From Methanomassiliicoccus sp. (GTDB lineage Archaea > Thermoplasmatota > Thermoplasmata > Methanomassiliicoccales > UBA472): DNA of 46,481 nucleotides. The notes under the pieces are model-generated. The model was not told the origin of the DNA, did not search any database, and worked only from the letters and a program-made list of their open reading frames with translations. Both the position numbers and the translations under genes were made by a program. Shown piece by piece: positions 4,983 through 33,098 of the stretch; the stretch's first letter is position 1, and each line of letters begins with the position of its first letter. The stretch is from assembly GCA_004525545.1 (NCBI GenBank), contig SPCU01000002.1, positions 1 to 46,481 on the forward strand. The letters are read 5' to 3'.

Positions 4983-5108
4983 ACCGATACCAGACTGATA
5001 GGAATACATCTTTTACATATAACTATTGATAACATACCTCATTTTGTCCATTCATCCCTGGGCCAGTTTCAGGAAAGATATTTAGCGCCGTATCTCCAAG
5101 TACACATT

Positions 5109-5672
5109 ATGCAGGCCGAGGAGGTAAGGGATATACTGGTTCAGGAGATCATGTCCAGCAGCCCCAGCACTGGGCGGCCTGACATGACCGTGAAGGATGC
5201 AGCGTTCCTAATGCTCCATGAGGGCGTGGGTAGCTTAGTGATATTGGAGCATGGGGAGCCAGTAGGTATTTTGACCGAACGGGATATCTTATACAAGGTG
5301 GTGGCGGAGGGTGAGTTGCCTTCCCGGATCAAGGTCGAGAATATCATGTCCTCCCCGGTCATCACCGTGTCCCCGGATTCCAGCGTTGCGGTGGCCGCCA
5401 AGCGTATGTCTGACCTGCACTTGCGGCGACTGCCTGTGGTGGAAAAGGGCAAGCTCATAGGCATGTTGACCGAGAAGGACGTGCTCCGCCTTTCACCCTC
5501 CCTGATCGCACTTACAAGAGAATGGGGCATACTAGGTGTCGGAAAAGGAGTGGAGATCAAAGAACCGGGCAGTGTGTCTGGGTATTGTGAGGACTGCGAG
5601 TCCTATTCCATCAACCTACAGCTGGAGAACGGCATCCTGCTATGCCATGACTGTAGGGAAGAACAGACCTGA
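5109..5672 (+). CDS. CBS-domain pair protein with C-terminal zinc ribbon
   Basis: Two CBS repeats (VGILTERDILYKV; LIGMLTEKDVLRL), then CEDCESYS...LLCHDC. The track ORF starts at 4971 inside the divergent promoter region, so the ATG at 5109 is preferred. Confidence 0.8.
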   Translation: MQAEEVRDILVQEIMSSSPSTGRPDMTVKDAAFLMLHEGVGSLVILEHGEPVGILTERDILYKVVAEGELPSRIKVENIMSSPVITVSPDSSVAVAAKRMSDLHLRRLPVVEKGKLIGMLTEKDVLRLSPSLIALTREWGILGVGKGVEIKEPGSVSGYCEDCESYSINLQLENGILLCHDCREEQT

Positions 5673-5994: not shown

Positions 5995-7176
5995 TCACTT
6001 GAAGCTGATGAGCAGCCGGCCGTCCTTGAACTCCGCCTTGTGCGCTTCTTTTTGTACCAAGGAGTAAGGCAAAGCGACCGAACGCTTATACCAGCCAACC
6101 TTGACGATTAGGACATCGTTCGTTTTATATAACTCTACCTCATCCTTACTGGAGAAGGGCAATTTTAGGGCCATCATGTCCACCCCGTTCTTGGAGAATA
6201 TCTCCATGCTCTTCTCGGTAGTGAAGACGATGGCAGGATCTATGTCTCCGAACAACTGTTCCGCCAGCACTTCAAGCGACCTTTGCCCCACCACCTCGGT
6301 GGTGGACTGATATGCCTTCAGCATTTTCAATGGAGAGAAAGATTCCTCAATAAGCTCCATGTATCGCGACTGCTCCTCGTACTTGGCCTGCGGATAATGG
6401 TCCCGCATTTCTTCCGGCAGTAACCGGTTGATGACCATGCATTCCACGGTCAGGTTGTAGAGAGAAAGGTAGGTGTAGGCACGCTTGGTTTCGTTGATCA
6501 CCATCTTTTCCGGATTGACCACCAGCCGCACCGATGTCATCTGGGAGTCCTGCAGTATTATGCGTACCTCCTTCATGCGGTCCCTGATCTGGTCCAGGTC
6601 GTCCAAGAAGGCATTTGATGGCATTGGGGTGCTCATGACCTTGCCCACGGTGGCACGGGCGAGCTTCACCGTGTTCTTGAACATCTTATACATCTTGTCA
6701 AAGTACCAATCGGCGGTGTCTGGGAAGCTTAGTAGGCGTAGCGTCTCGGCCGTAGGCGCCGTATCCATGACCACCACATCGTACTTCCCGCTGATCTTGA
6801 ACTCCTCGATGTAGAACAGGGCGGACATCAGCTCCATACCAGGCCACACGGTCATCTCCTTTGCCGAGATAGGGTCCATACCTTGCGACTCCATGAAGTC
6901 CGAGAGGTACTGCCCGATCTCCTTCCAACGGGTCTCCATCTCGTGTATGACATCAACCTCGATGGCATCCAGGTTAGGCAAGATGTTCTTGATATCACCA
7001 GTTAGCGGCATGTCCAATGAATCGGCCAGCGAATGAGCCGAATCGGTGCTGATGACGATGGTTCGATGCCCCAGTTTAGCACAACGCAGGGCGGTAGCCG
7101 CAGAGACCGAAGTTTTGCCAACGCCACCCTTGCCAGTATAAATTAATACCCTCAGTCTCTCACCGAAAGGAACCAA
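5995..7176 (-). CDS. ArsA/GET3-family ATPase with C-terminal HSP20/alpha-crystallin-like domain
   Basis: Deviant Walker A (YTGKGGVGKTSVSAA) and STDSAHSL are present. The C-terminal ~70 aa (VELYKTNDVLIVKVGWYKRSVALP...AEFKDGRLLISFK) resemble the ArsA-associated HSP20-like domain. The start codon is TTG. Confidence 0.85.
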   Translation of the reverse strand: MVPFGERLRVLIYTGKGGVGKTSVSAATALRCAKLGHRTIVISTDSAHSLADSLDMPLTGDIKNILPNLDAIEVDVIHEMETRWKEIGQYLSDFMESQGMDPISAKEMTVWPGMELMSALFYIEEFKISGKYDVVVMDTAPTAETLRLLSFPDTADWYFDKMYKMFKNTVKLARATVGKVMSTPMPSNAFLDDLDQIRDRMKEVRIILQDSQMTSVRLVVNPEKMVINETKRAYTYLSLYNLTVECMVINRLLPEEMRDHYPQAKYEEQSRYMELIEESFSPLKMLKAYQSTTEVVGQRSLEVLAEQLFGDIDPAIVFTTEKSMEIFSKNGVDMMALKLPFSSKDEVELYKTNDVLIVKVGWYKRSVALPYSLVQKEAHKAEFKDGRLLISFK

Positions 7177-13470: not shown

Positions 13471-13479
13471 AATATATAG
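13471..13479 (+). promoter_or_regulatory. TATA-like box upstream of the small GTPase gene
   Basis: AATATATAG lies ~26-34 nt upstream of the ATG at 13505. This spacing suggests a leaderless or very short-leader mRNA. Confidence 0.45.
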
Positions 13480-13504
13480 ACGCTGGCCTCATACTGTGGA
13501 TAGA

Positions 13505-14011
13505 ATGGCGAAACGCCAGTTCGTAAAAAAGATCTGCCTTTTGGGAGACGGGGAGGTTGGCAAGACCAGTTTAATAAGACGGTACGTGCTGGACATCTTC
13601 GATGACCAATATATCCAGACGTTCGGGGCCAAGGTCAGCAAGAAGGTGCTGGACCTGGAGGACGTCAACCTCACCCTGATGATCTGGGACGTATTGGGGC
13701 AGAAGACTCAAAAGGCGTTGCACACCACATACTATGCTGGAGCGAACGGTGCTTTCCTGGTCTGCGACATGACCAGACCGGAGACCTTGGAGCGCCTTCA
13801 CCATTGGGCCGAGGACCTGCGGGAGGTGGCCGGAGACATTCCTATCATCGTCATCGGCAACAAGTGCGATCTGGAGATGAAGATCGACCCTCTTGACCTG
13901 CAGCACTTCGCCACTGAGATCAGGACCCCGATGTTATTGACCAGCGCCCTGACCGGGGAGGGCGTGGAAGAGGCGTTCCAGGCGCTTGGACAAAAGGCCA
14001 TGGGGGGCTAA
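13505..14011 (+). CDS. Ras/Rab-like small GTPase
   Basis: All five G motifs are present: G1 GDGEVGKT, G2 YIQTFG, G3 WDVLGQ, G4 GNKCD, G5 TSALTGEGV. No C-terminal prenylation motif. The track start is a GTG at 13496; the ATG at 13505 is preferred. Confidence 0.88.
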   Translation: MAKRQFVKKICLLGDGEVGKTSLIRRYVLDIFDDQYIQTFGAKVSKKVLDLEDVNLTLMIWDVLGQKTQKALHTTYYAGANGAFLVCDMTRPETLERLHHWAEDLREVAGDIPIIVIGNKCDLEMKIDPLDLQHFATEIRTPMLLTSALTGEGVEEAFQALGQKAMGG

Positions 14012-14012
14012 G

Positions 14013-14966
14013 ATGGGAAAGGACATGCGGCCGTTCTTCGTCATGCCTGGTTCCGCCCTCAAGGACCTGAGGGAGGAACTGCAACTTATCAACGGGGCGG
14101 ATTCCGCCCGGACCATGGAACGGTATGGATTCCGCGCTGGTGTCGGGCTGGTTCGAACTCTGGGGTTGGAATGCACCGATATCGTGGAGGCCAAGGCCAT
14201 CATAGAGCAGGTGTGGACCGAGACCGGGCTCAGCCGTATGATCATCGAGATGATCAACGAGACGGAGATAGTCATCACCTTCAATGAATCGGTGGAGGCG
14301 TACAACGGAGACCATTGCGATTTCACCAAGGGCTACATCTCCGGGATCATCTCCTCACTGATGCGCCGACGTTATGACGCTTACGAGGCGTCCTGCATTT
14401 CTGACGGGGCGGCCAAGTGCGTACATGTGCTCACGCCCTCGCCCACCTATCCCACCGAGAAACGGGAGATCATCATTAGGGATGAGGATAGACAGCGCAA
14501 GTATCTGCTGGAACCAGGGACCTCATACCTGGTGGAGTCGGCCACTTTGGAATCGGCCTACCAGATGTACAAGGACCAGGTCGTAGAGGGATGCACCGGT
14601 ATGGTGCTGGCCCGGGAATTCCCGGAAAAGGTGCAGAAGGTCTATGGGATCACCGAAGGGACGTTGCTATGGTTATCGTACGAGAGGGGAAGGCGTTACG
14701 CACGCGAGCCGACCGATATTCCCATGATCTATAGCGAGATCAAGAACTTCTTCGAGGCGAACAGCAAGGCTGTCGTTCTGCTATCCGGTCTTGAATATCT
14801 GATCAGCCAGAACACCTTTCTGAAGGTGCTCAAACTATTGCAGCTGCTCAACGACAACGTCTCCATGACCGGTTCCATGCTCATCATACCAGTGGTCCCT
14901 GAGGCGTTGAACCCTCAGGACGTTAAGATGCTGGAGAGAGAATTGCGCGTCCTCGAGATCGATTGA
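14013..14966 (+). CDS. V4R-domain (N-terminal) plus DUF835-domain (C-terminal) protein
   Basis: The V4R-like half ends in the characteristic EASCISDGAAKCVHVL. The C-terminal half (MVLAREFPEKV...LLWLS...VVLLSGLEYLISQNTFLKVLKLLQLLND...LIIPV) matches the DUF835 pattern. The ATG at 14013 lies 1 nt after the GTPase TAA; the track start at 13986 overlaps the GTPase. Confidence 0.72.
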   Translation: MGKDMRPFFVMPGSALKDLREELQLINGADSARTMERYGFRAGVGLVRTLGLECTDIVEAKAIIEQVWTETGLSRMIIEMINETEIVITFNESVEAYNGDHCDFTKGYISGIISSLMRRRYDAYEASCISDGAAKCVHVLTPSPTYPTEKREIIIRDEDRQRKYLLEPGTSYLVESATLESAYQMYKDQVVEGCTGMVLAREFPEKVQKVYGITEGTLLWLSYERGRRYAREPTDIPMIYSEIKNFFEANSKAVVLLSGLEYLISQNTFLKVLKLLQLLNDNVSMTGSMLIIPVVPEALNPQDVKMLERELRVLEID

Positions 14967-15007: not shown

Positions 15008-15478
15008 ATGAACCTAGTCCCGAAAAAGTTCTTCGTCACCCAGGGAGTCGCCATGAGCAAGGTCTCCGACCTCAACGCCTTCGATCAGGCGCTAATGCAG
15101 GCCAAGATAGGAGAGCAGAACCTTGTCTCGGTATCGTCCGTTCTCCCCATCGGGGCTAAGAAGGTCGCGGTCCGCGAGCTGCCCATGGGTGCCATCACCC
15201 ATTGTGTGCTGGCACAGATGAGAGGTGGTGAGGGTGAGATGATCTCTGCCGGGATCGCCTACGCCTTCCGCAAGGACGGTAAGGGCGGCTATGTGGCCGA
15301 AGGGCACATGCACGGTACCAAGAAGGCGCTCAGGGAAGTGCTGGAATGGAAGATGAGCGAGATGCAGGCCCTGCGTGGAGTTGAGCTGATGAAGATCAAC
15401 TACGCCATCGAGGAGCTCTCCATCCCCATGGACCATTACGGAACTTGCTTGGGAGCATTGGTCTTCGTCGAGGTCTGA
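15008..15478 (+). CDS. pdaD: pyruvoyl-dependent arginine decarboxylase
   Basis: VPKKFFVTQGV, the self-cleavage region LVSVSSVLP, and a ~155 aa size fit the family. Confidence 0.9.
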   Translation: MNLVPKKFFVTQGVAMSKVSDLNAFDQALMQAKIGEQNLVSVSSVLPIGAKKVAVRELPMGAITHCVLAQMRGGEGEMISAGIAYAFRKDGKGGYVAEGHMHGTKKALREVLEWKMSEMQALRGVELMKINYAIEELSIPMDHYGTCLGALVFVEV

Positions 15479-15885
15479 TGTTCGGTGCGGTGGTCTGTCC
15501 CCGTTGTCGCAAGGGTTTCGCGGTCGACCTGGAACATCGTTCCTCGTCCTGCCCCCATTGCGGTCGTCAGATACAGGTGCGTCGCATGAAGGTCCATTTC
15601 AGCTCCTCTTCCGCCTCCCTCACCGCTCAGGCGGTCGGAGAGCTCAATCGAAAGGGGCGGGAGCTGAAGTCTTTTGATGGTGAAATTGAGCAGAAAACAA
15701 AGAGGATCGTCCTCTCCCCTGTCCAGATCGAGATATTGATCAGGGATATGGAAGAGTTCGACCTCGCCGAACTGGAAGGAAAGCTGGCCGGAAGGATGGT
15801 CATGAGCCCCGATGAGCTGCTACGCAGAATGCTCTCTCTCGGTCTGGTCTACGAGTCCTCCCCCGGTCGTTATCGACGGGCTTAG
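15478..15885 (+). CDS. zinc-ribbon protein, function unknown
   Basis: CPRC...CPHC ribbon at the N-terminus. The ATG overlaps the pdaD stop (TGATG). Ends in TAG, which overlaps the TAA of the convergent gene (cTTAGa). Confidence 0.55.
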   Translation: MFGAVVCPRCRKGFAVDLEHRSSSCPHCGRQIQVRRMKVHFSSSSASLTAQAVGELNRKGRELKSFDGEIEQKTKRIVLSPVQIEILIRDMEEFDLAELEGKLAGRMVMSPDELLRRMLSLGLVYESSPGRYRRA

Positions 15886-22560: not shown

Positions 22561-23199
22561 ATGCAAGGACAGGAAATTCTGGCAGCATTGGAGAACGCGG
22601 TTATCACTGGTAACAAGGCTGACTCTATTAAATTCGCCAAGGAGGCATTGGAAAACGGAGTTAAGGCCTTGGACGCCATCGATAATGGATTGGTCAAGGG
22701 TATGACCATCGTCGGTGACAAGTACGCCAAGCACGAATTCTTCTTACCCCAGGTACTACTGGCCGCGGCGTCATTGTACGGCGGGTTGGACATTTTGCTA
22801 CCCCATATTCCAACGGACGGAACCGCCAAAAGGGTGGTGGGAGTCATTGGGGTCGTCGAGGGTGACGTGCACGACATCGGTAAAAACATCGTGAAGACCA
22901 TGTTGACCGCGGCCGGACTAGACATGCACGATTACGGCAAGGATGTGCCCGTCGAGAACTTCGTCAATTCGGTGAAGAAGGATGGGGCTTTCATACTGGC
23001 GATGAGCACCTTGATGACGCCGACCATGGACGGTATGAAGTCGGTCGTCGACGGATTGATCGAGAACGGGGACCGCACGACGGTGAAGATCATAATCGGT
23101 GGCGCACCAACGTCCCAGCCGTTCGCGGACGACATCGGGGCGGACATGCACGCCATCAATGCCCAGGAAGCGGTCAAGAAAGTAAAGGAGGTGTTGTGA
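22561..23199 (+). CDS. methyltransferase cognate corrinoid (B12-binding) protein, MtaC/MtbC/MtsB-like
   Basis: N-terminal helical cap. B12 motif GDVHDIGKN (DxHxxG), MSTLMT (SxL) and IIIGGAP (GG). Confidence 0.9.
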   Translation: MQGQEILAALENAVITGNKADSIKFAKEALENGVKALDAIDNGLVKGMTIVGDKYAKHEFFLPQVLLAAASLYGGLDILLPHIPTDGTAKRVVGVIGVVEGDVHDIGKNIVKTMLTAAGLDMHDYGKDVPVENFVNSVKKDGAFILAMSTLMTPTMDGMKSVVDGLIENGDRTTVKIIIGGAPTSQPFADDIGADMHAINAQEAVKKVKEVL

Positions 23200-23200
23200 A

Positions 23201-24298
23201 ATGACTGAGAAGATGACTCATATAGAGCGGGTCTTGGCATCCTTGGGCGACCAGCCGGTTGACAGGCTGACGGTATACCCCATCGCATGCGGCGTCTCCC
23301 GCCGGACGATCGGGGACGGGACAATGCTGTACAAGGACTGGTGCTCGGACCCCAAGAACTACGCACAGGGGTTAATATCCGGGCAGAAGTACTTCGACCT
23401 GGACTTAACCGTCGGCCTGATGGACCTGTCGGTCATAGCCGGGGACTTTGGGTCCCATGTGCGCATGGACGAGCAGAACACACCGTTCGTGGACGATCCA
23501 GTGATCAAAGGGCCGGAGGACTATGAGAAACTGCAGGCTCCGGACATAAATAAGGGTAGGTCTGGTGTTATCCTCGAAGGCACCAAGATCTTCGCCGATG
23601 CCCTGAAGAATGAGACCATCACATCGGGGTTCCTTGAGGGCCCATTATTGGCACTGACCCAGTCGGCCAGCGCAGAGAAGGTCTTCATGGACATGTACAA
23701 CAACCGCTCGGCGGTCCACAAGGCCCTGGGGACCTTCACCGAGTATTTAAGGGATATGGTCAAGGGGATGGGACAGTCCAAGCCTGCCGCGTGTATGTGG
23801 GACTATCTCTGGGCTTCCTACAGCTGCCTAGGCGACAACGAGTACGATGAGTTCGAGGGGCAGTACAAGTACGCTGGCGGCCTGAACGAGCTGGTCGGCA
23901 AGGAGGGCATGGCCTTGGCCATACACAACTGCGCCGACCTGCCCCACCTGGACACCCAGATCAAGGCGATGAAGCCCGCAGCCTATACCATGGCCTACTA
24001 CCCGCTGATACCCGGCTCGCCGTCGGCCTCCGAGGTCATCGGAAAGGGATACGCGGACAATTGCGTGGTATGCGGTAACATTGACCCCCAGGGCTACGTG
24101 CGCTGGAGCCAGGAGAAGATGCAGAAGACCACCATGAACTTGTGCCAAGAGGTCAAGACGGCCTTGTGCGCCCGCGGCCTGAAGTCTAAGTATTGCATCG
24201 CTTCCGGATGCGAGGTACCCCCGTCAGTCACTACCCGCCTTGAGAACATCAAGACAATGGTTGACACCGTCAAGCAGTACGGTCAGGTCACCTGCTGA
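23201..24298 (+). CDS. UroD-family methyltransferase, Zn-type (MtaA/MtbA/MtsA-like methylcobamide:thiol methyltransferase)
   Basis: UroD-like N-terminus (ERVLASLGDQPVDRLTVYP). Putative Zn ligands H-x-C (AIHNCAD) and a downstream Cys (IASGCEVPP), as in MT2 enzymes. Starts 1 nt after the corrinoid gene stop. Confidence 0.8.
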   Translation: MTEKMTHIERVLASLGDQPVDRLTVYPIACGVSRRTIGDGTMLYKDWCSDPKNYAQGLISGQKYFDLDLTVGLMDLSVIAGDFGSHVRMDEQNTPFVDDPVIKGPEDYEKLQAPDINKGRSGVILEGTKIFADALKNETITSGFLEGPLLALTQSASAEKVFMDMYNNRSAVHKALGTFTEYLRDMVKGMGQSKPAACMWDYLWASYSCLGDNEYDEFEGQYKYAGGLNELVGKEGMALAIHNCADLPHLDTQIKAMKPAAYTMAYYPLIPGSPSASEVIGKGYADNCVVCGNIDPQGYVRWSQEKMQKTTMNLCQEVKTALCARGLKSKYCIASGCEVPPSVTTRLENIKTMVDTVKQYGQVTC

Positions 24299-24300
24299 AC

Positions 24301-24338
24301 GATGGCTCCGGCCATCATCTTTATTTTTTCCTTTTTCC
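24301..24338 (+). terminator. hairpin plus oligo-T terminator after the methyltransferase gene
   Basis: GATGGC-TCCG-GCCATC hairpin at 24301-24316, followed by ATCTTTATTTTTTCCTTTTTCC. Confidence 0.6.
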
Positions 24339-24396
24339 AAAATTTTAACAACCTATTCATACTTGAAATCAGATTTCTGGATATACTGGTGAACCG

Positions 24397-25068
24397 ATGA
24401 AAATTGCTCAGGTCGCAGGTTTTCTTGGAAGTGGAAAGACCACCTTCCTCATAGAATTGGCCAAGATCCTGGTGGATCGTGGCCATAGGATCGCTATCAT
24501 CGTCAATGACGTGGGGGAGATAAACGTAGATGCCAAATTCATCGAGATGTACGGACTGAAGGCCAAGGAGATATCCGGCGGATGCATTTGCTGCCAGGTA
24601 GCCGGTAACTTCGCCAATACCATCGCCATCCTTTACAACACTTTCAAACCTGACATCGTCATCGTGGAGCCATCTGGTGTTGCGATCCCTTGGGGACTGA
24701 AACGTGCCGCGGAATACTCCGAAGAGGAGATGGACGACGTCATCGTCCATGCTCCGGTCATTACCTTGGTCGACTCACTCAGGATCGAGGAGCTCATGCA
24801 GTCGGTGCGCCGCCTGGTCGAGACGCAGATACGCGAGGCGGACGTGGTATTCATCAATAAGGTGGACAGCGCCACCAAGGAGAAGATCGACCTATCGGTA
24901 CAGTTCTCTAAGGCCATCAACCCTAACGCTGAGATCATGTTCGGTTCCGGTCGCAATAACCAGGGGGTAAAGGAAGCGGCCACGTTGATAGAGACCAGGA
25001 CCTCGCCCCGCTACGACGAGTCGTATGAGAAGGAGATGCTTAAGAGGGACTACGGAGGGGGCGCCTGA
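24397..25068 (+). CDS. COG0523/CobW-family G3E GTPase, GTPase domain only
   Basis: Walker A GFLGSGKTT, metal-binding GCICC, EPSGVA, and NKVD. The ORF ends where the usual C-terminal domain would begin. Confidence 0.85.
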   Translation: MKIAQVAGFLGSGKTTFLIELAKILVDRGHRIAIIVNDVGEINVDAKFIEMYGLKAKEISGGCICCQVAGNFANTIAILYNTFKPDIVIVEPSGVAIPWGLKRAAEYSEEEMDDVIVHAPVITLVDSLRIEELMQSVRRLVETQIREADVVFINKVDSATKEKIDLSVQFSKAINPNAEIMFGSGRNNQGVKEAATLIETRTSPRYDESYEKEMLKRDYGGGA

Positions 25069-26234: not shown

Positions 26235-26578
26235 CCTCGCATCTCCTTCAGCGTCTGGCGGATGCGTTCTTTCGTTTCATCGATGCCTTTACGAGAGACG
26301 TTGAAATGCTTGTCGATCATGATCATGGAAGAGGGCAACACTTCAAATCGATTTAACACCAGAAGGCCGCAACCTCCCTCGCAACCGTCCACTAACAATA
26401 CCTTACGGAATTGAAGGGATCGCATCTCTTCCATAGCCTTCGGCAATTCAGCCAGGGCGGGAGCGACGGTCACCACCCTAATATTTTCTTCCTTGGTCAG
26501 CTCCCTCACCGCTGCCCTCAGCACCCTAGCCCCAGGGCTGTACCCGCTGCATATGGCCACATCAATCTGTTCGCTCAT
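26231..26578 (-). CDS. DGC-domain putative zinc-binding protein
   Basis: AICSGYSPGARV ... LLVDGCEGGCG, the eponymous DGC motif with 4 conserved Cys. Overlaps the next gene as ATGA. Confidence 0.65.
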   Translation of the reverse strand: MSEQIDVAICSGYSPGARVLRAAVRELTKEENIRVVTVAPALAELPKAMEEMRSLQFRKVLLVDGCEGGCGLLVLNRFEVLPSSMIMIDKHFNVSRKGIDETKERIRQTLKEMRG

Positions 26579-28589
26579 GCTCCACCTCGAAGTACATGCG
26601 GGGCTTGCCCACTGCTGTTACTTTCATATGGATCTCCAGAAGCAGGCCTTCACCCCATGATTTTCCGATCTGACCCATGATCCGTTCGTTCTCCACTATA
26701 ACCTCGATCTCGTCGGCCCCGGCCATTACGGACATCTGCCGTACCTTGCTCTCCCCCCAGGACCTGGCATAGTTGGTGGCCTCGGTGATCGTCTCGAACT
26801 CCCTCATCTCATCCATGGAGTGCATGGTGCAAGGTGGGTCCTCCATGACTCCCAGTCCAGGCTTGGGCTTGATCAGCACCTCTACCGATTCCATTATACT
26901 GCTGGTGATTGCTCCAACGGCGTTCCCCACGTCCGAGTTCACAGGCATGAGCAGCTCGGTATGCAATCTCTGGGCCACGGACGGGAGATAGGCGGCGATG
27001 GGCGCCCCGATGCCTATTATCTTCTTGTGCACCCTGATGTCAGCAGAGAAATCGATTCCTGGACGCTGGGTGGTCATCTTTTCGAATAGTACGTTGCAGA
27101 CATCACAATGGGCCATCTTTCCGCAGTCCTCGTAGACCAGACGGAAGATGATCTCCTTGGCTATCTTTTGGATGGCCGCCTCTTTTACCGTTGCGCAGAA
27201 CTCCTTGATGCCTACGTCACATAGTTCGGCCCGATAATCAGCGGCCAGGGTCGACGCTTCCGCATCGTATTCCACATACTCCCCGGAGGCGTGCAGGGCG
27301 TCTGTGGGGGTAAAGCCGATGCGAGTGATGATGCCCAATTCCTCAAGCTTGCGAACATTAAAACTGTAGGGGTGCACACCGGTGCCTTCGGATAACTCCA
27401 TCAAGGTCTTCGGTTCATCCTTGATGCTCTCCACCAGGAATTTCTCGTTCTGAGAGAGCTCGTATCCCTTGACCGTGCGAGAGAAGATGAAGAACTCATC
27501 GGCCTGCAGTATGTTCTCCATGGCGATGTGAGTGGCCTGGGGGGTCGGCTTGAGCCCCTTGACCTTCTTCAGGCTCTCGAGTATTCGAGGGTATTGAGTG
27601 GATGCAATGCATAGCGGCATGACCCGAAGCGCCCCCAGCAGTATGTGGCCGTTGACCACGACTACCCGGCTGTCACCACCGATACCAGATGTGGATATGT
27701 CCGCGGCCTTGACACGGGTGCGCCACCCTCCTATTATCGCCCCTTCGGGGTCCAAACGGGGTTTCCCCCCGCGCAGCACGCCAATGTCGGTGGTCGTCCC
27801 TCCGATGTCGACCACCACCGCCTCTTCCTCACCGGTCAAATTCTTCGCCCCGATCAGGCTGGCTGCCGGACCGGATAATATGGTCTCCACCGGCCGCTCC
27901 TTTCCCTGTTGTTCACCCATCAGCGATCCATCGCCTTTGACGATCATCAAAGGGGCTGATATGGAGTTCTCTTTCAGCACCTTAATGACCGATTGTATGA
28001 GGTCGGCCATTATCGGTATCAACTTGGCGTTCAGCACCGCGGTCAGGGTCCTCTCATGGAAGCCCAGCTGAGTAGACAGCTCATGACCACAGACCACCGG
28101 GATCCCCCAGTTACTGGATATCATGTTCTTTAAAGCGATCTCGTGCTCCGGATTTCGTACGCTGAAAAAGGTGGAGATCGCGATGGCGTCCACCTGGTTG
28201 GCTACCCCTTTCACGAAATCCATGGCTGCGACCAGGTCGATATCACAGTTGGCCTTCCCACGAATGGTGTGTCCTCCCTGAACCTGGACGACGTGCTCTA
28301 CAGGGATGCTTTGTTTATACTCCTCACCGGCGATTATCAGAGCCACCCGGCAACCCTTGCCCTCCACTACCGAATTCGTTGCCAATGTGGACGATAAGGA
28401 GACCAGCCGGATGTCTTTGACCGGTATCGACCCTAGGTTCTTTATCGAGCCGGAAATGCCGATGCTCAGATCGTTCCTGGTGGTCAATGCCTTGGCCTTG
28501 GCTATAACTCTGCCATCAGCAAGGTCTATCAATGCTGTGTCAGTGTACGTGCCTCCGGTATCGATTCCCAACCCTAGGTCCATTTGCAT
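26562..28589 (-). CDS. hydantoinase/oxoprolinase-like ASKHA-fold ATPase with an inserted winged-helix-like segment
   Basis: N-terminal GIDTGGTYTDTALIDL and second phosphate loop VVVDIGGTTTDIG. A central ~60 aa segment (LSQNEKFLVESIKDEPKTLMELSE...LEELGIITRIG) looks wHTH-like. No Fe-S Cys cluster is visible. Confidence 0.72.
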   Translation of the reverse strand: MQMDLGLGIDTGGTYTDTALIDLADGRVIAKAKALTTRNDLSIGISGSIKNLGSIPVKDIRLVSLSSTLATNSVVEGKGCRVALIIAGEEYKQSIPVEHVVQVQGGHTIRGKANCDIDLVAAMDFVKGVANQVDAIAISTFFSVRNPEHEIALKNMISSNWGIPVVCGHELSTQLGFHERTLTAVLNAKLIPIMADLIQSVIKVLKENSISAPLMIVKGDGSLMGEQQGKERPVETILSGPAASLIGAKNLTGEEEAVVVDIGGTTTDIGVLRGGKPRLDPEGAIIGGWRTRVKAADISTSGIGGDSRVVVVNGHILLGALRVMPLCIASTQYPRILESLKKVKGLKPTPQATHIAMENILQADEFFIFSRTVKGYELSQNEKFLVESIKDEPKTLMELSEGTGVHPYSFNVRKLEELGIITRIGFTPTDALHASGEYVEYDAEASTLAADYRAELCDVGIKEFCATVKEAAIQKIAKEIIFRLVYEDCGKMAHCDVCNVLFEKMTTQRPGIDFSADIRVHKKIIGIGAPIAAYLPSVAQRLHTELLMPVNSDVGNAVGAITSSIMESVEVLIKPKPGLGVMEDPPCTMHSMDEMREFETITEATNYARSWGESKVRQMSVMAGADEIEVIVENERIMGQIGKSWGEGLLLEIHMKVTAVGKPRMYFEVEHERTD

Positions 28590-32104: not shown

Positions 32105-32425
32105 TTGGAGTTCGATGAATACGTGATCGACCTGAACGCAAAGTGTACCTGCGGGTGCATGGAGGGCGATCGGTTCCATAACATCTATCGGTTCCCAAAT
32201 AACTATGGGGCCTCTGTAGTGTCCAGTCCCAAGAACGATCCGAAGAGGAAGGGGGGCTATCGCATCATGTTAATTCGATTCGACTCTCCCGCTCCCGAGC
32301 ACATGTGGACATTGGACGATGATAATCCCATATCCGATTCCATCCTCGATTGCGACGATTGGGAGACTGCGTTGGCATATCTCCGGCGCCTGTTCGCCCT
32401 TCCCACACATTTGAATGACGGATGA
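32105..32425 (+). CDS. hypothetical 106-aa protein
   Basis: TTG start preceded by a GAGGGAG RBS. CTCGC motif near the N-terminus. Overlaps the DUF1638 gene start by 11 nt. No family recognised. Confidence 0.5.
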   Translation: MEFDEYVIDLNAKCTCGCMEGDRFHNIYRFPNNYGASVVSSPKNDPKRKGGYRIMLIRFDSPAPEHMWTLDDDNPISDSILDCDDWETALAYLRRLFALPTHLNDG

Positions 32426-33098
32426 TACCATGACCGAGAACGATTCAGCCAAGAAGGGGCGTTTGGCCATTATTGCCTGCGAGATCCTGAAACCTGAACT
32501 TGAGAAGCTCACAGAGGGTTGGGACGAGGTGGTCCACAGAGAATATCTAGAGTTCGCCCTGCATATCAACGCCGACGATCTGAGGGTCAAGGTCCAGGAC
32601 AAGGTCAACGCCTTGCATGGTCAGGTCGACGCCGTGTTCTTAGGATATGCGGTCTGTCAATCACTGTCCGGCATAACTGGTCTTTTGAAAGTGCCGACGG
32701 TCATGTTGGAGGGAGATGATTGTATCGCCGCCATCCTGGGGCCAGTAGAGTACGAGCACCAGAAGCGTTTGTGCGGAGGCACCTGGTTCAATACGCCTGG
32801 ATGGGCCTTGAGAGGGGTAGAGGGAGCGATCAAGGAGCTACACCTGGATATGCTCATAGACCAAGGATACGAGCCGAAGTACTTTCTAGACATGCTCTTC
32901 GAGAACTACGAGAGGTGCATATACGTCGATACGGATGTGGGCGATGCGGAGCATTACGAAGCATTATCCCGCCAGTTCGCCGAGGACCTGGGGCTGAGGC
33001 ACGAGAACCGGCCCTGCGGCACGGCCAACCTGGAAAGGTTCCTGGCTAGGACACTGCAGCTGGCAAGAAGTAATGGTCCAGCGGCGAAACTTCAATAA
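32415..33098 (+). CDS. DUF1638-family protein (family usually found beside corrinoid methyltransferase genes)
   Basis: RLAIIACEILKPELEKL ... AVFLGYAVCQSL ... DDCIAAILG pattern and a ~225 aa size. Confidence 0.7.
   Translation: MTDDTMTENDSAKKGRLAIIACEILKPELEKLTEGWDEVVHREYLEFALHINADDLRVKVQDKVNALHGQVDAVFLGYAVCQSLSGITGLLKVPTVMLEGDDCIAAILGPVEYEHQKRLCGGTWFNTPGWALRGVEGAIKELHLDMLIDQGYEPKYFLDMLFENYERCIYVDTDVGDAEHYEALSRQFAEDLGLRHENRPCGTANLERFLARTLQLARSNGPAAKLQ

Follow-up and report, generated by a model that had tools for sequence, protein, structure and literature searches.

A Rab/Ras-like small GTPase gene and a V4R-DUF835 gene form a conserved pair in Thermoplasmatota

Described GTPase-partner systems and the Methanomassiliicoccus locus

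Eukaryote-like small GTPases are abundant in archaea, and almost none of them has been matched to a regulator. Here we describe a locus of Methanomassiliicoccus sp. in which the gene of a Rab/Ras-like small GTPase is followed directly by the gene of a protein that combines a V4R domain with a DUF835 domain. The locus lies in a stretch of 46,481 nucleotides (GenBank assembly GCA_004525545.1, contig SPCU01000002.1, positions 1 to 46,481), the whole of which is called the window below. The pair is real and conserved; it apparently belongs with the prokaryotic GTPases that are paired to a cognate sensor or regulator, and apparently has not been described before. We put a probability of roughly 0.6 on the reading that the two genes encode a dedicated signalling pair from one leaderless, translationally coupled operon, in which the GTPase would be the switch and V4R-DUF835 its cognate sensor-adaptor, docking through DUF835.

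The closest prokaryotic precedents are MglA-MglB, in which MglB is a roadblock GTPase-activating protein (GAP), the actinobacterial conservon CvnA-D, which joins a sensor kinase, a roadblock protein and a GTPase, and the Rup group 1 GTPases, which cluster with signalling output proteins (Wuichet & Sogaard-Andersen 2014, PMC4316618). As in these systems, a Ras-superfamily GTPase is here coupled genetically to a regulator or sensor and the neighbourhood is kept across lineages. Unlike in MglA-MglB and the conservon, the partner is a V4R-pseudoKaiC protein in place of a roadblock/LC7 protein or a histidine kinase, and unlike MglA the GTPase has a catalytic Gln and a Rab/Ras-like sequence, is distributed in Thermoplasmatota and is known from its genes alone. 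An MglA/MglB module was rejected, there being no Robl_LC7 match in the window open reading frames (ORFs) scanned with Pfam. Among archaea, the ArvA-ArvB-ArvC operon of Haloferax volcanii likewise combines a small GTPase with family-specific partners in a conserved operon, ArvB and ArvC being the proposed guanine nucleotide exchange factor (GEF) and GAP of ArvA (Mills et al. 2024, PMC10927574). In that system the Arf/Sar-like ArvA carries an amphipathic helix at its N-terminus and is paired with a DUF2073 protein (ArvB) and a DUF2072 zinc ribbon (ArvC), whereas the window GTPase scores 127 bits with Pfam Ras (cut-off 21.6, residues 9-164) against 49.5 bits with Arf (4.4e-13), has no N-terminal amphipathic extension and has another partner. 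Its neighbours encode PAC2, V4R-DUF835, PvlArgDC and a DUF5817-like zinc ribbon and not DUF2073 or DUF2072, and ArvABC was rejected on these grounds.

The V4R domain has been linked to Bet3 of the eukaryotic TRAPP complex by Podar et al. (2008, PMC2253512), who never mention GTPases. The Asgard GTPase genes generally lie outside operons that contain TRAPPC3, roadblock or longin genes, and the layout of these genomes does not reveal the partners of the GTPases (Tran et al. 2024, PMC10933270); unlike in Asgard archaea, a GTPase-V4R operon is the rule here. The locus resembles TRAPP-Rab1/Ypt1 in that a Bet3/V4R fold occurs together with a Rab-like GTPase, and the Thorarchaeota TRAPPC3 and PoxR in that the V4R domain carries a zinc-type cysteine site, but TRAPP is a multi-subunit complex with longin-dependent exchange whereas V4R-DUF835 joins its V4R to a KaiC-like domain in one polypeptide. 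In sequence and fold, its N-terminal half is closest to the V4R domains of the phenol sensors PoxR/MopR/DmpR and of MsvR, a redox-sensitive regulator of methanogens, and it shares with them a Cys...Glu-x2-Cys-x7-Cys site. Their outputs are AAA+ and helix-turn-helix (HTH) domains in PoxR/MopR/DmpR, which are bacterial enhancer-binding proteins, and HTH in MsvR; here the output is DUF835, the partner is a GTPase and there is no DNA-binding domain. DUF835 itself has the same Pfam family and C-terminal output position as in archaeal response regulators, and a KaiC-like fold as in ArlH/FlaH, from which it differs by the missing P-loop. Unlike in REC/PAS-DUF835 proteins, the input is V4R, and among the few contexts sampled a GTPase neighbour occurs only in the V4R subfamily. 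Single Rab-like sequences from a "Thermoplasmatales archaeon" and Aciduliprofundum were listed by Surkont & Pereira-Leal (2016) with no analysis of their context, and published trees have been unable to place archaeal Rab-like sequences of this type. The original prediction, made from the sequence alone, knew of no experimental description of a GTPase-V4R-DUF835 pair, and we likewise found none, experimental or comparative, in the literature searched, which did not cover the 2017 mBio review of archaeal KaiC-like ATPases by Makarova, Galperin & Koonin. As far as that literature goes, this is the first genetic link of a V4R/Bet3-fold domain to a Rab-like GTPase.

The two genes are laid out as originally predicted (Table 1). 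The GTPase stop codon TAA (14009-14011) is followed by a single G (14012) and then by the ATG of V4R-DUF835 (14013), an arrangement that implies translational coupling. A TATA-like box, which had been placed at 13471-13479 and taken as the pair's own promoter, precedes the GTPase ATG, and an equivalent A/T box occurs at the same distance from this ATG in eight orthologous loci of one clade (L001, L002, L009, L011, L013, L014, L016, L072) and in four of a second (L043, L047, L038, L052). Because its position is conserved in two clades, the pair has its own promoter and, as judged from these sequences, probably a transcript with no leader or nearly none.

Conservation of the pairing

Searching genome contigs with the single V4R-DUF835 protein returned only relatives of 79-88% identity, which is uninformative on deep conservation; all close homologues carry Methanomassiliicoccales names. 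In these closest relatives the genes for HycI, an M16 peptidase, PAC2, the GTPase, V4R-DUF835, PvlArgDC, a zinc ribbon, a transglutaminase-like protein, a membrane protein and a PAPS-reductase-like protein are all syntenic. Adjacency there thus says little, and for this reason loci were sought by V4R-DUF835 similarity alone. The retrieved loci were 13 from genomes, 80 from metagenomes, scanned with a 10-sequence alignment of distant V4R-DUF835 members, and several more from 50%-cluster representatives; GTPase neighbours were detected in the fetched loci with a local GTPase hidden Markov model, and loci with enough flanking DNA (n = 102) were counted as informative.

A Ras-like GTPase gene on the same strand directly adjoins the V4R-DUF835 gene in 97 of the 102 informative loci, lying upstream in 91 (one of them fused), downstream in four and on both sides in two, and in most loci the spacing is +1, -1 or -4 nt. 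The look-up from a GTPase homologue likewise yields V4R-DUF835 next door. At 55% identity the V4R-DUF835 proteins form about a dozen lineages, in about nine of which the GTPase is adjacent or fused, and the linked loci comprise at least eight flanking contexts and both gene orders. With GT and VD denoting the GTPase and V4R-DUF835 genes, the contexts include HycI-M16-PAC2-GT-VD-PvlArgDC, M16-GT-VD lacking PAC2, GT-VD-zinc ribbon-membrane protein-PAPS reductase, GT-GT-VD-V4R, GlyRS...GT-GT-VD, MscS...VD-GT-NifS, and GT-VD-GT-CinA with roadblock and V4R genes near by; one clade keeps the downstream flanking genes only. The VD-first order is found in three lineages with unrelated neighbourhoods (L039; L101/L102; and L089, which is cut at the upstream contig end). 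PAC2 and PvlArgDC were rejected as members of the module, both being lost in other clades that retain the pair. Across clades the identity of V4R-DUF835 drops to 26-37%, while the GTPase switch I block YVxDxFDDxYIxTxGxKVxKK is near-invariant, and such constancy despite the divergence of the partner fits a conserved binding partner.

The synteny of the whole block (HycI-M16-PAC2-GT-VD-PvlArgDC-zinc ribbon-transglutaminase-membrane protein-PAPS reductase) in the closest relatives is what would be expected if GTPase and V4R-DUF835 were neighbours merely through a conserved Methanomassiliicoccales housekeeping block (HycI, M16, PAC2, PvlArgDC) and had unrelated functions. The pair, however, outlasts the loss of every flanking gene, inversion of the gene order, duplication of the GTPase, one fusion and divergence to the identities given above, with its start/stop overlaps kept, and since a fetched locus contains one to three Ras-like genes, chance adjacency in about nine lineages would be very unlikely. 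Conservation in so many contexts effectively rules out coincidence, which we regard as hardly credible. The adjacency beyond this one genome on which the original prediction depended is therefore present, and GTPase and V4R-DUF835 are a genuine conserved module across Thermoplasmatota. Translational coupling and phylum-wide conservation leave no ambiguity about the partner of this GTPase and make the two a directly testable GTPase-partner pair.

Table 1. Positions of the features in the window and, where an L number is given, in fetched loci (pLDDT, predicted local distance difference test; aa, amino acids; nt, nucleotides)
Feature	Positions	Strand	Remarks
TATA-like promoter box gaatatatag	13471..13480	+	~25-34 nt 5' of GTPase ATG
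Rab/Ras-like small GTPase, 168 aa	13505..14011	+	Pfam Ras 6.6e-37
V4R-DUF835 protein, 317 aa	14013..14966	+	begins 1 nt past GTPase stop
V4R/Bet3-fold sensor domain, residues ~8-143	14034..14441	+	profile alignment, Foldseek, pLDDT 77-93
Predicted Zn/thiol site	14316..14426	+	C102 14316-14318, E125 14385-14387, C128 14394-14396, C136 14418-14420, H138 14424-14426
Interdomain linker, variable, residues 145-160	14445..14492	+	pLDDT <50; unconserved, length varies
DUF835 domain, residues ~165-315	14505..14957	+	Pfam 92 bits; KaiC/RecA-like alpha/beta fold
KaiC-like ATPase beside V4R-DUF835	L018 2060-2785; L105 3154-3891; L106 266-1003	-	no GTPase neighbour
Ras-V4R-DUF835 fusion P0323, 527 aa	L017 6001-7584		junction 6535-6545
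Second Ras-like GTPase just 5' of the first	L022 2545-3276; L034 2580-3446; L036 2635-3456; L004 3312-3821		
Second, stand-alone V4R gene	L022 ~5095-5538; L030 5092-5598		directly 3' of V4R-DUF835
GTPase-V4R-like-DUF835-GTPase cluster	L103 2832-5264 and 6300-7078; L104 1-3919		stops/starts overlap
Zinc ribbon, ~135-150 aa	window 15478-15885	+	ORF listed from 15445
Zinc ribbon, ~135-150 aa	L043 4959-5411; L110 5067-5492		
Membrane protein, 231 aa	16988-17683		no Pfam match
PAPS-reductase-domain protein, 639 aa	17710-19629	-	N-terminal Cys clusters, C-terminal 4Fe-4S dicluster domain
ArsA/Get3-type ATPase	5995-7176	-	ArsA_ATPase 7e-84, ArsA_HSP20 1.8e-18
Methylotrophic-methanogenesis-type cluster	22561-25068; 26562-28589; 32415-33098	+; -; +	

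The GTPase, V4R and DUF835 domains

The first ORF is classified from its sequence as a Ras superfamily small GTPase (PF00071), matching Roc at 2.4e-30 and the NCBIfam model TIGR00231 small_GTP at 2.2e-17 in addition to Ras. Its translation contains the complete eukaryote-like G1-G5 set that had been read in it (GDGEVGKT, YIQTFG, WDVLGQ, NKCD and TSALTGEGV), including the catalytic Gln66. Among 70 unique members of the family, G1 is conserved in 69, DxxGQ in 69, NKxD in 70 and [ST]SA in 70, and outside the catalytic motifs conservation is highest in the switch I block. Among solved structures its top matches are Rab21, the Thorarchaeota Rab 7ezb, Ypt32 and Rab1A/B (4e-28 to 1e-25), with Ypt1 also among the best relatives, and orthologues carry the NCBI name 'Rab family GTPase'. 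By eye YYAGA resembles RabF4, LVCDMT RabF5 and LMIWD RabF2; RabF1 and RabF3 are unrecognisable. The protein ends ...GQKAMGG and has no C-terminal prenylation motif (CC, CXC or CAAX), and only three of the 70 family members have a Cys within the last six residues. Because the prenylation Cys is missing here and in 67 of the 70, we file the protein as a Rab/Ras-like prokaryotic GTPase and not as a Rab.

The N-terminal half of the 317-aa protein had been read as a V4R domain, and this assignment (PF02830) stands on fold and homologue evidence even though the Pfam score of the window protein by itself does not reach the cut-off (5.1e-6, 26.9 bits against 31 bits, residues 101-142 only). The C-terminal (V4R) region of the NCBIfam MsvR model matches residues 34-139 at 1.3e-6, a profile built from 22 orthologues aligns over residues 6-150 with the entire PoxR/MopR sensor domain, and distant V4R-DUF835 homologues exceed the Pfam cut-off with 44-47 bits. 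Foldseek searches with the structure model of V4R-DUF835 (pLDDT 83, predicted template-modelling score (pTM) 0.51) gave PoxR/MopR/DmpR at about 1e-7 and Bet3/TRAPPC3 at about 2e-5 (target-normalised TM-score 0.62-0.67), with further matches of the V4R domain to YslB, MJ1460 and the Thorarchaeota TRAPPC3. Taken together these results make the V4R assignment firm, and the alignments and model indicate that the domain spans the whole PoxR/MopR-type sensor fold, beyond the short Pfam V4R core. The model consists of two well-folded domains joined by a linker predicted to be disordered; the low pTM arises because the arrangement of the domains is not fixed. Membership of MsvR was rejected, as only model positions 129-235 match, with 28 bits against a cut-off of 220, and no HTH is found by Pfam.

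The E-x-x-C-x-x-x-G-x-x-x-C ending of the domain, pointed out in the original prediction, is present as E125-A-S-C128-I-S-D-G132-A-A-K-C136 and is invariant among the 22 orthologues, as are C102 and H138. The site reads C-x22-E-x2-C-x7-C, its cysteines align with those of PoxR/MopR in the orthologue profile, and the spacing of C102, C128 and C136 (26/8) equals that of C206, C232 and C240 in MaMsvR, the Methanosarcina cysteines that by mutagenesis control redox-dependent DNA binding (PMC3729527). By Foldseek E-value the modelled V4R domain is nearer to PoxR/MopR than to Bet3.

The Bet3 fold beside a Rab-like GTPase nevertheless raises the reading that V4R is itself the exchange factor, or its core, and the locus a prokaryotic forerunner of TRAPP-Rab1/Ypt1, an analogy first drawn in the original prediction. 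The Foldseek match and TM-scores above, the presence of Rab1, Ypt1 and Ypt32 among the best solved relatives of the GTPase and the strong genetic linkage all speak for it, and the extra stand-alone V4R genes of L022 and L030, like the roadblock/LC7 and V4R genes beside the GT-VD-GT cluster of L104, recall multi-subunit GTPase regulators. In TRAPP, the main contacts to Ypt1 come from the longin subunits Trs23 and Bet5 together with the C-terminal tail of Bet3, and exchange activity depends on these parts, whereas the 30 window ORFs scanned with Pfam include neither a longin nor a roadblock protein; a roadblock/LC7 gene was seen only near the distant L103/L104 cluster. In addition, V4R keeps the sensor-type Zn/Cys site of PoxR, MopR and MsvR, and Tran et al. 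(2024, PMC10933270) judged the Asgard TRAPPC3/V4R proteins to be probable ligand binders. V4R-DUF835 proteins that have no GTPase adjoin KaiC ATPases, and this suggests that the domain turned towards the NTPase is DUF835 and not V4R. The analogy thus keeps fold homology as its one positive support, and with the sensor-type site, the closer kinship to PoxR/MopR and the lack of a longin among the ORFs scanned we consider it improbable. The locus is probably an undescribed signalling module and not a proven TRAPP-Rab precursor.

The C-terminal half is a DUF835 domain (PF05763), as proposed, with 92.4 bits against a cut-off of 33.1 (2.7e-26, residues 181-311, profile positions 7-136 of 136). It had been said to have no assigned function, yet published work already treats DUF835 as a KaiC-like output domain that has become inactive: it is labelled iKaiC by Galperin et al. 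(2018, PMC5847659), who list it among the outputs of archaeal response regulators. The modelled fold agrees, with Foldseek matches to FlaH/ArlH (4yds, 6.8e-6), the RecA-superfamily ATPase PH0284 (1.3e-4) and KaiC (8fwj, 1.4e-4). Residues 165-317 contain no Walker A motif GxxGxGK[ST], VESATLESA standing at the corresponding place, and the domain is thus best described, from sequence and model, as a KaiC/RecA-like pseudo-ATPase that has lost its P-loop. An exhaustive profile search returned 3,444 relatives in which DUF835 is C-terminal to REC-PAS, seven-transmembrane, AAA, zinc-ribbon or V4R modules, a placement that argues for an output domain. Neither of two non-V4R DUF835 proteins inspected has a GTPase neighbour. 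The module offers a first concrete partner for one subfamily of this widespread output domain.

In two GTPase-less lineages (P0242, P0243) the gene adjoining V4R-DUF835 encodes a KaiC-like ATPase of 241-245 aa (PF06745, 3.7e-41), so that the pseudo-ATPase protein V4R-DUF835 appears to be always paired with a P-loop NTPase. One such locus, L105, has two additional KaiC-like genes within 4 kb. KaiC-like ATPases were reportedly proposed as archaeal signalling hubs by Makarova et al. in 2017. These ATPase neighbours, the KaiC/FlaH-like fold and the iKaiC label suggest a reading in which the pseudo-KaiC domain inserts into, or docks on, oligomers of a true KaiC-like ATPase encoded elsewhere, the GTPase being an accessory timer or input. 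No KaiC-like gene is present among the window ORFs scanned, however, the tight translational coupling is to the GTPase, and none of the loci seen has both a GTPase and a KaiC neighbour, a pattern suggestive of alternative partners and not of a three-way complex. The proposal is plausible for the GTPase-less lineages; it leaves the tight GTPase coupling unexplained and as an account of the module as a whole we find it unlikely.

A probable cognate signalling pair and its variants

The phylum-wide coupled linkage, and a different P-loop NTPase standing in for the GTPase in two lineages, together indicate that the GTPase has its cognate partner in V4R-DUF835. In the signalling pair that we favour, the soluble Rab/Ras-like GTPase with its intact G1-G5 motifs and catalytic Gln would be the switch, and V4R-DUF835 its cytoplasmic sensor-adaptor, with V4R as the input and DUF835 as the output. 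The input, most likely redox, as in MsvR, or a small hydrophobic ligand, as in PoxR/MopR, would be received through a conserved pocket and the Cys3/Glu(+His) site, which is of zinc or thiol type. DUF835 would most likely dock on the GTPase in a roughly 1:1 complex, and a signal sensed by V4R would alter the nucleotide state of the GTPase or its access to targets. Contact between the two proteins, the domain that makes it, the direction in which information flows and the protein that is upstream, the signal and the cellular output are all inferences, and the partner may act as a GEF, GAP, guanine nucleotide dissociation inhibitor (GDI)-like protein or effector. If the V4R cysteines sense redox, the pair could serve methanogens of gut and digester, which are strict anaerobes, as a switch that responds to oxygen or redox stress.

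A narrower version, in which V4R-DUF835 is a dedicated GEF or GAP of the Rab-like GTPase and the pseudo-KaiC domain its docking platform, is in our view rather improbable. Were it true, an archaeal phylum other than Asgard would already have connected a Bet3 fold to a Rab/Ras-like switch, as a simple, one-chain, signal-gated and ancestor-like form of TRAPP-Rab logic.

Several observations weigh against a sensor-adaptor that docks on the GTPase through DUF835. All nameable lineages are Thermoplasmatota or "Euryarchaeota archaeon", and as the loci apparently come from one phylum, part of the conservation is shared ancestry. The cysteines are missing in some clades (P0323, P0381), so that a zinc or redox input is not universal. 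The KaiC kinship of DUF835 rests on fold matches and literature, an hhalign comparison of the orthologue profile with one KaiC-like ATPase being not significant, and only two non-V4R DUF835 contexts were sampled. The natural Ras-V4R-DUF835 fusion P0323, found in L017, could be a one-base assembly error and is weak supporting evidence. The AlphaFold2 model of this fusion (pTM 0.44), made from a mixed alignment that is partly misaligned, has no confident interdomain packing; its V4R and DUF835 domains are good and the C-terminus of its GTPase is poor, some 43 residues having been misaligned by MAFFT in the GTPase rows, and this model says nothing for or against an interface.

At the fusion junction, aagcTGATGctc, a relic of the 1-nt stop/start overlap TGATG is preserved with its ATG in frame and is now read through, so that the fusion arose from the usual overlap by a one-base change, whether real or an assembly error. 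In the fused protein a Glu replaces the catalytic Gln, an insertion of about 25 residues follows switch I, and the V4R part is devoid of cysteines. No further GTPase-V4R-DUF835 fusion was found in 5.8 billion sequences, which leaves P0323 a singleton.

Gene number varies around the pair in several clades. A second Ras-like GTPase gene lies just 5' of the first in L022, L034, L036 and L004; three of these four extra GTPases are extended at the C-terminus by 60-110 aa that match nothing in Pfam, and in L004, from a close relative of the window organism, the extra gene is a plain tandem duplicate. In the clade with the GlyRS context an upstream GTPase of 273-288 aa is followed by GTPase-V4R-DUF835. 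The second stand-alone V4R gene (~145-168 aa, Pfam V4R 1.7e-8) occurs in L022 and L030, which represent two soil and sediment clades, the soil clade having the order GTPase-GTPase-V4R-DUF835-V4R. The Thermoplasmatota clade of L103 and L104 has a 220-aa GTPase, a V4R-like protein with no Cys joined to DUF835, and a 277-aa GTPase, with roadblock/LC7, stand-alone V4R and CBS genes about 1 kb off on the other strand; this set of folds recalls components of Ragulator and TRAPP.

A zinc-ribbon gene (weak DUF5817, CPxC...CPxCG) directly follows V4R-DUF835 in one Methanomassiliicoccales clade and PvlArgDC in the clade of the window, in which its probable ATG and the stop of pdaD overlap; more distant clades lack the gene, and it may either belong to the operon as a third gene or be a case of order-level synteny. 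The PAPS-reductase-domain protein and the adjacent membrane protein are encoded 3' of the module throughout Methanomassiliicoccales. Elsewhere in the window, the ArsA/Get3-type ATPase carries a C-terminal HSP20-like domain, and the methylotrophic-methanogenesis-type cluster comprises a corrinoid (B12-binding) protein, an adjacent 365-aa gene, a CobW-family GTPase, DUF1638, and a 675-aa hydantoinase/MutL-like protein between two DGC-domain genes.

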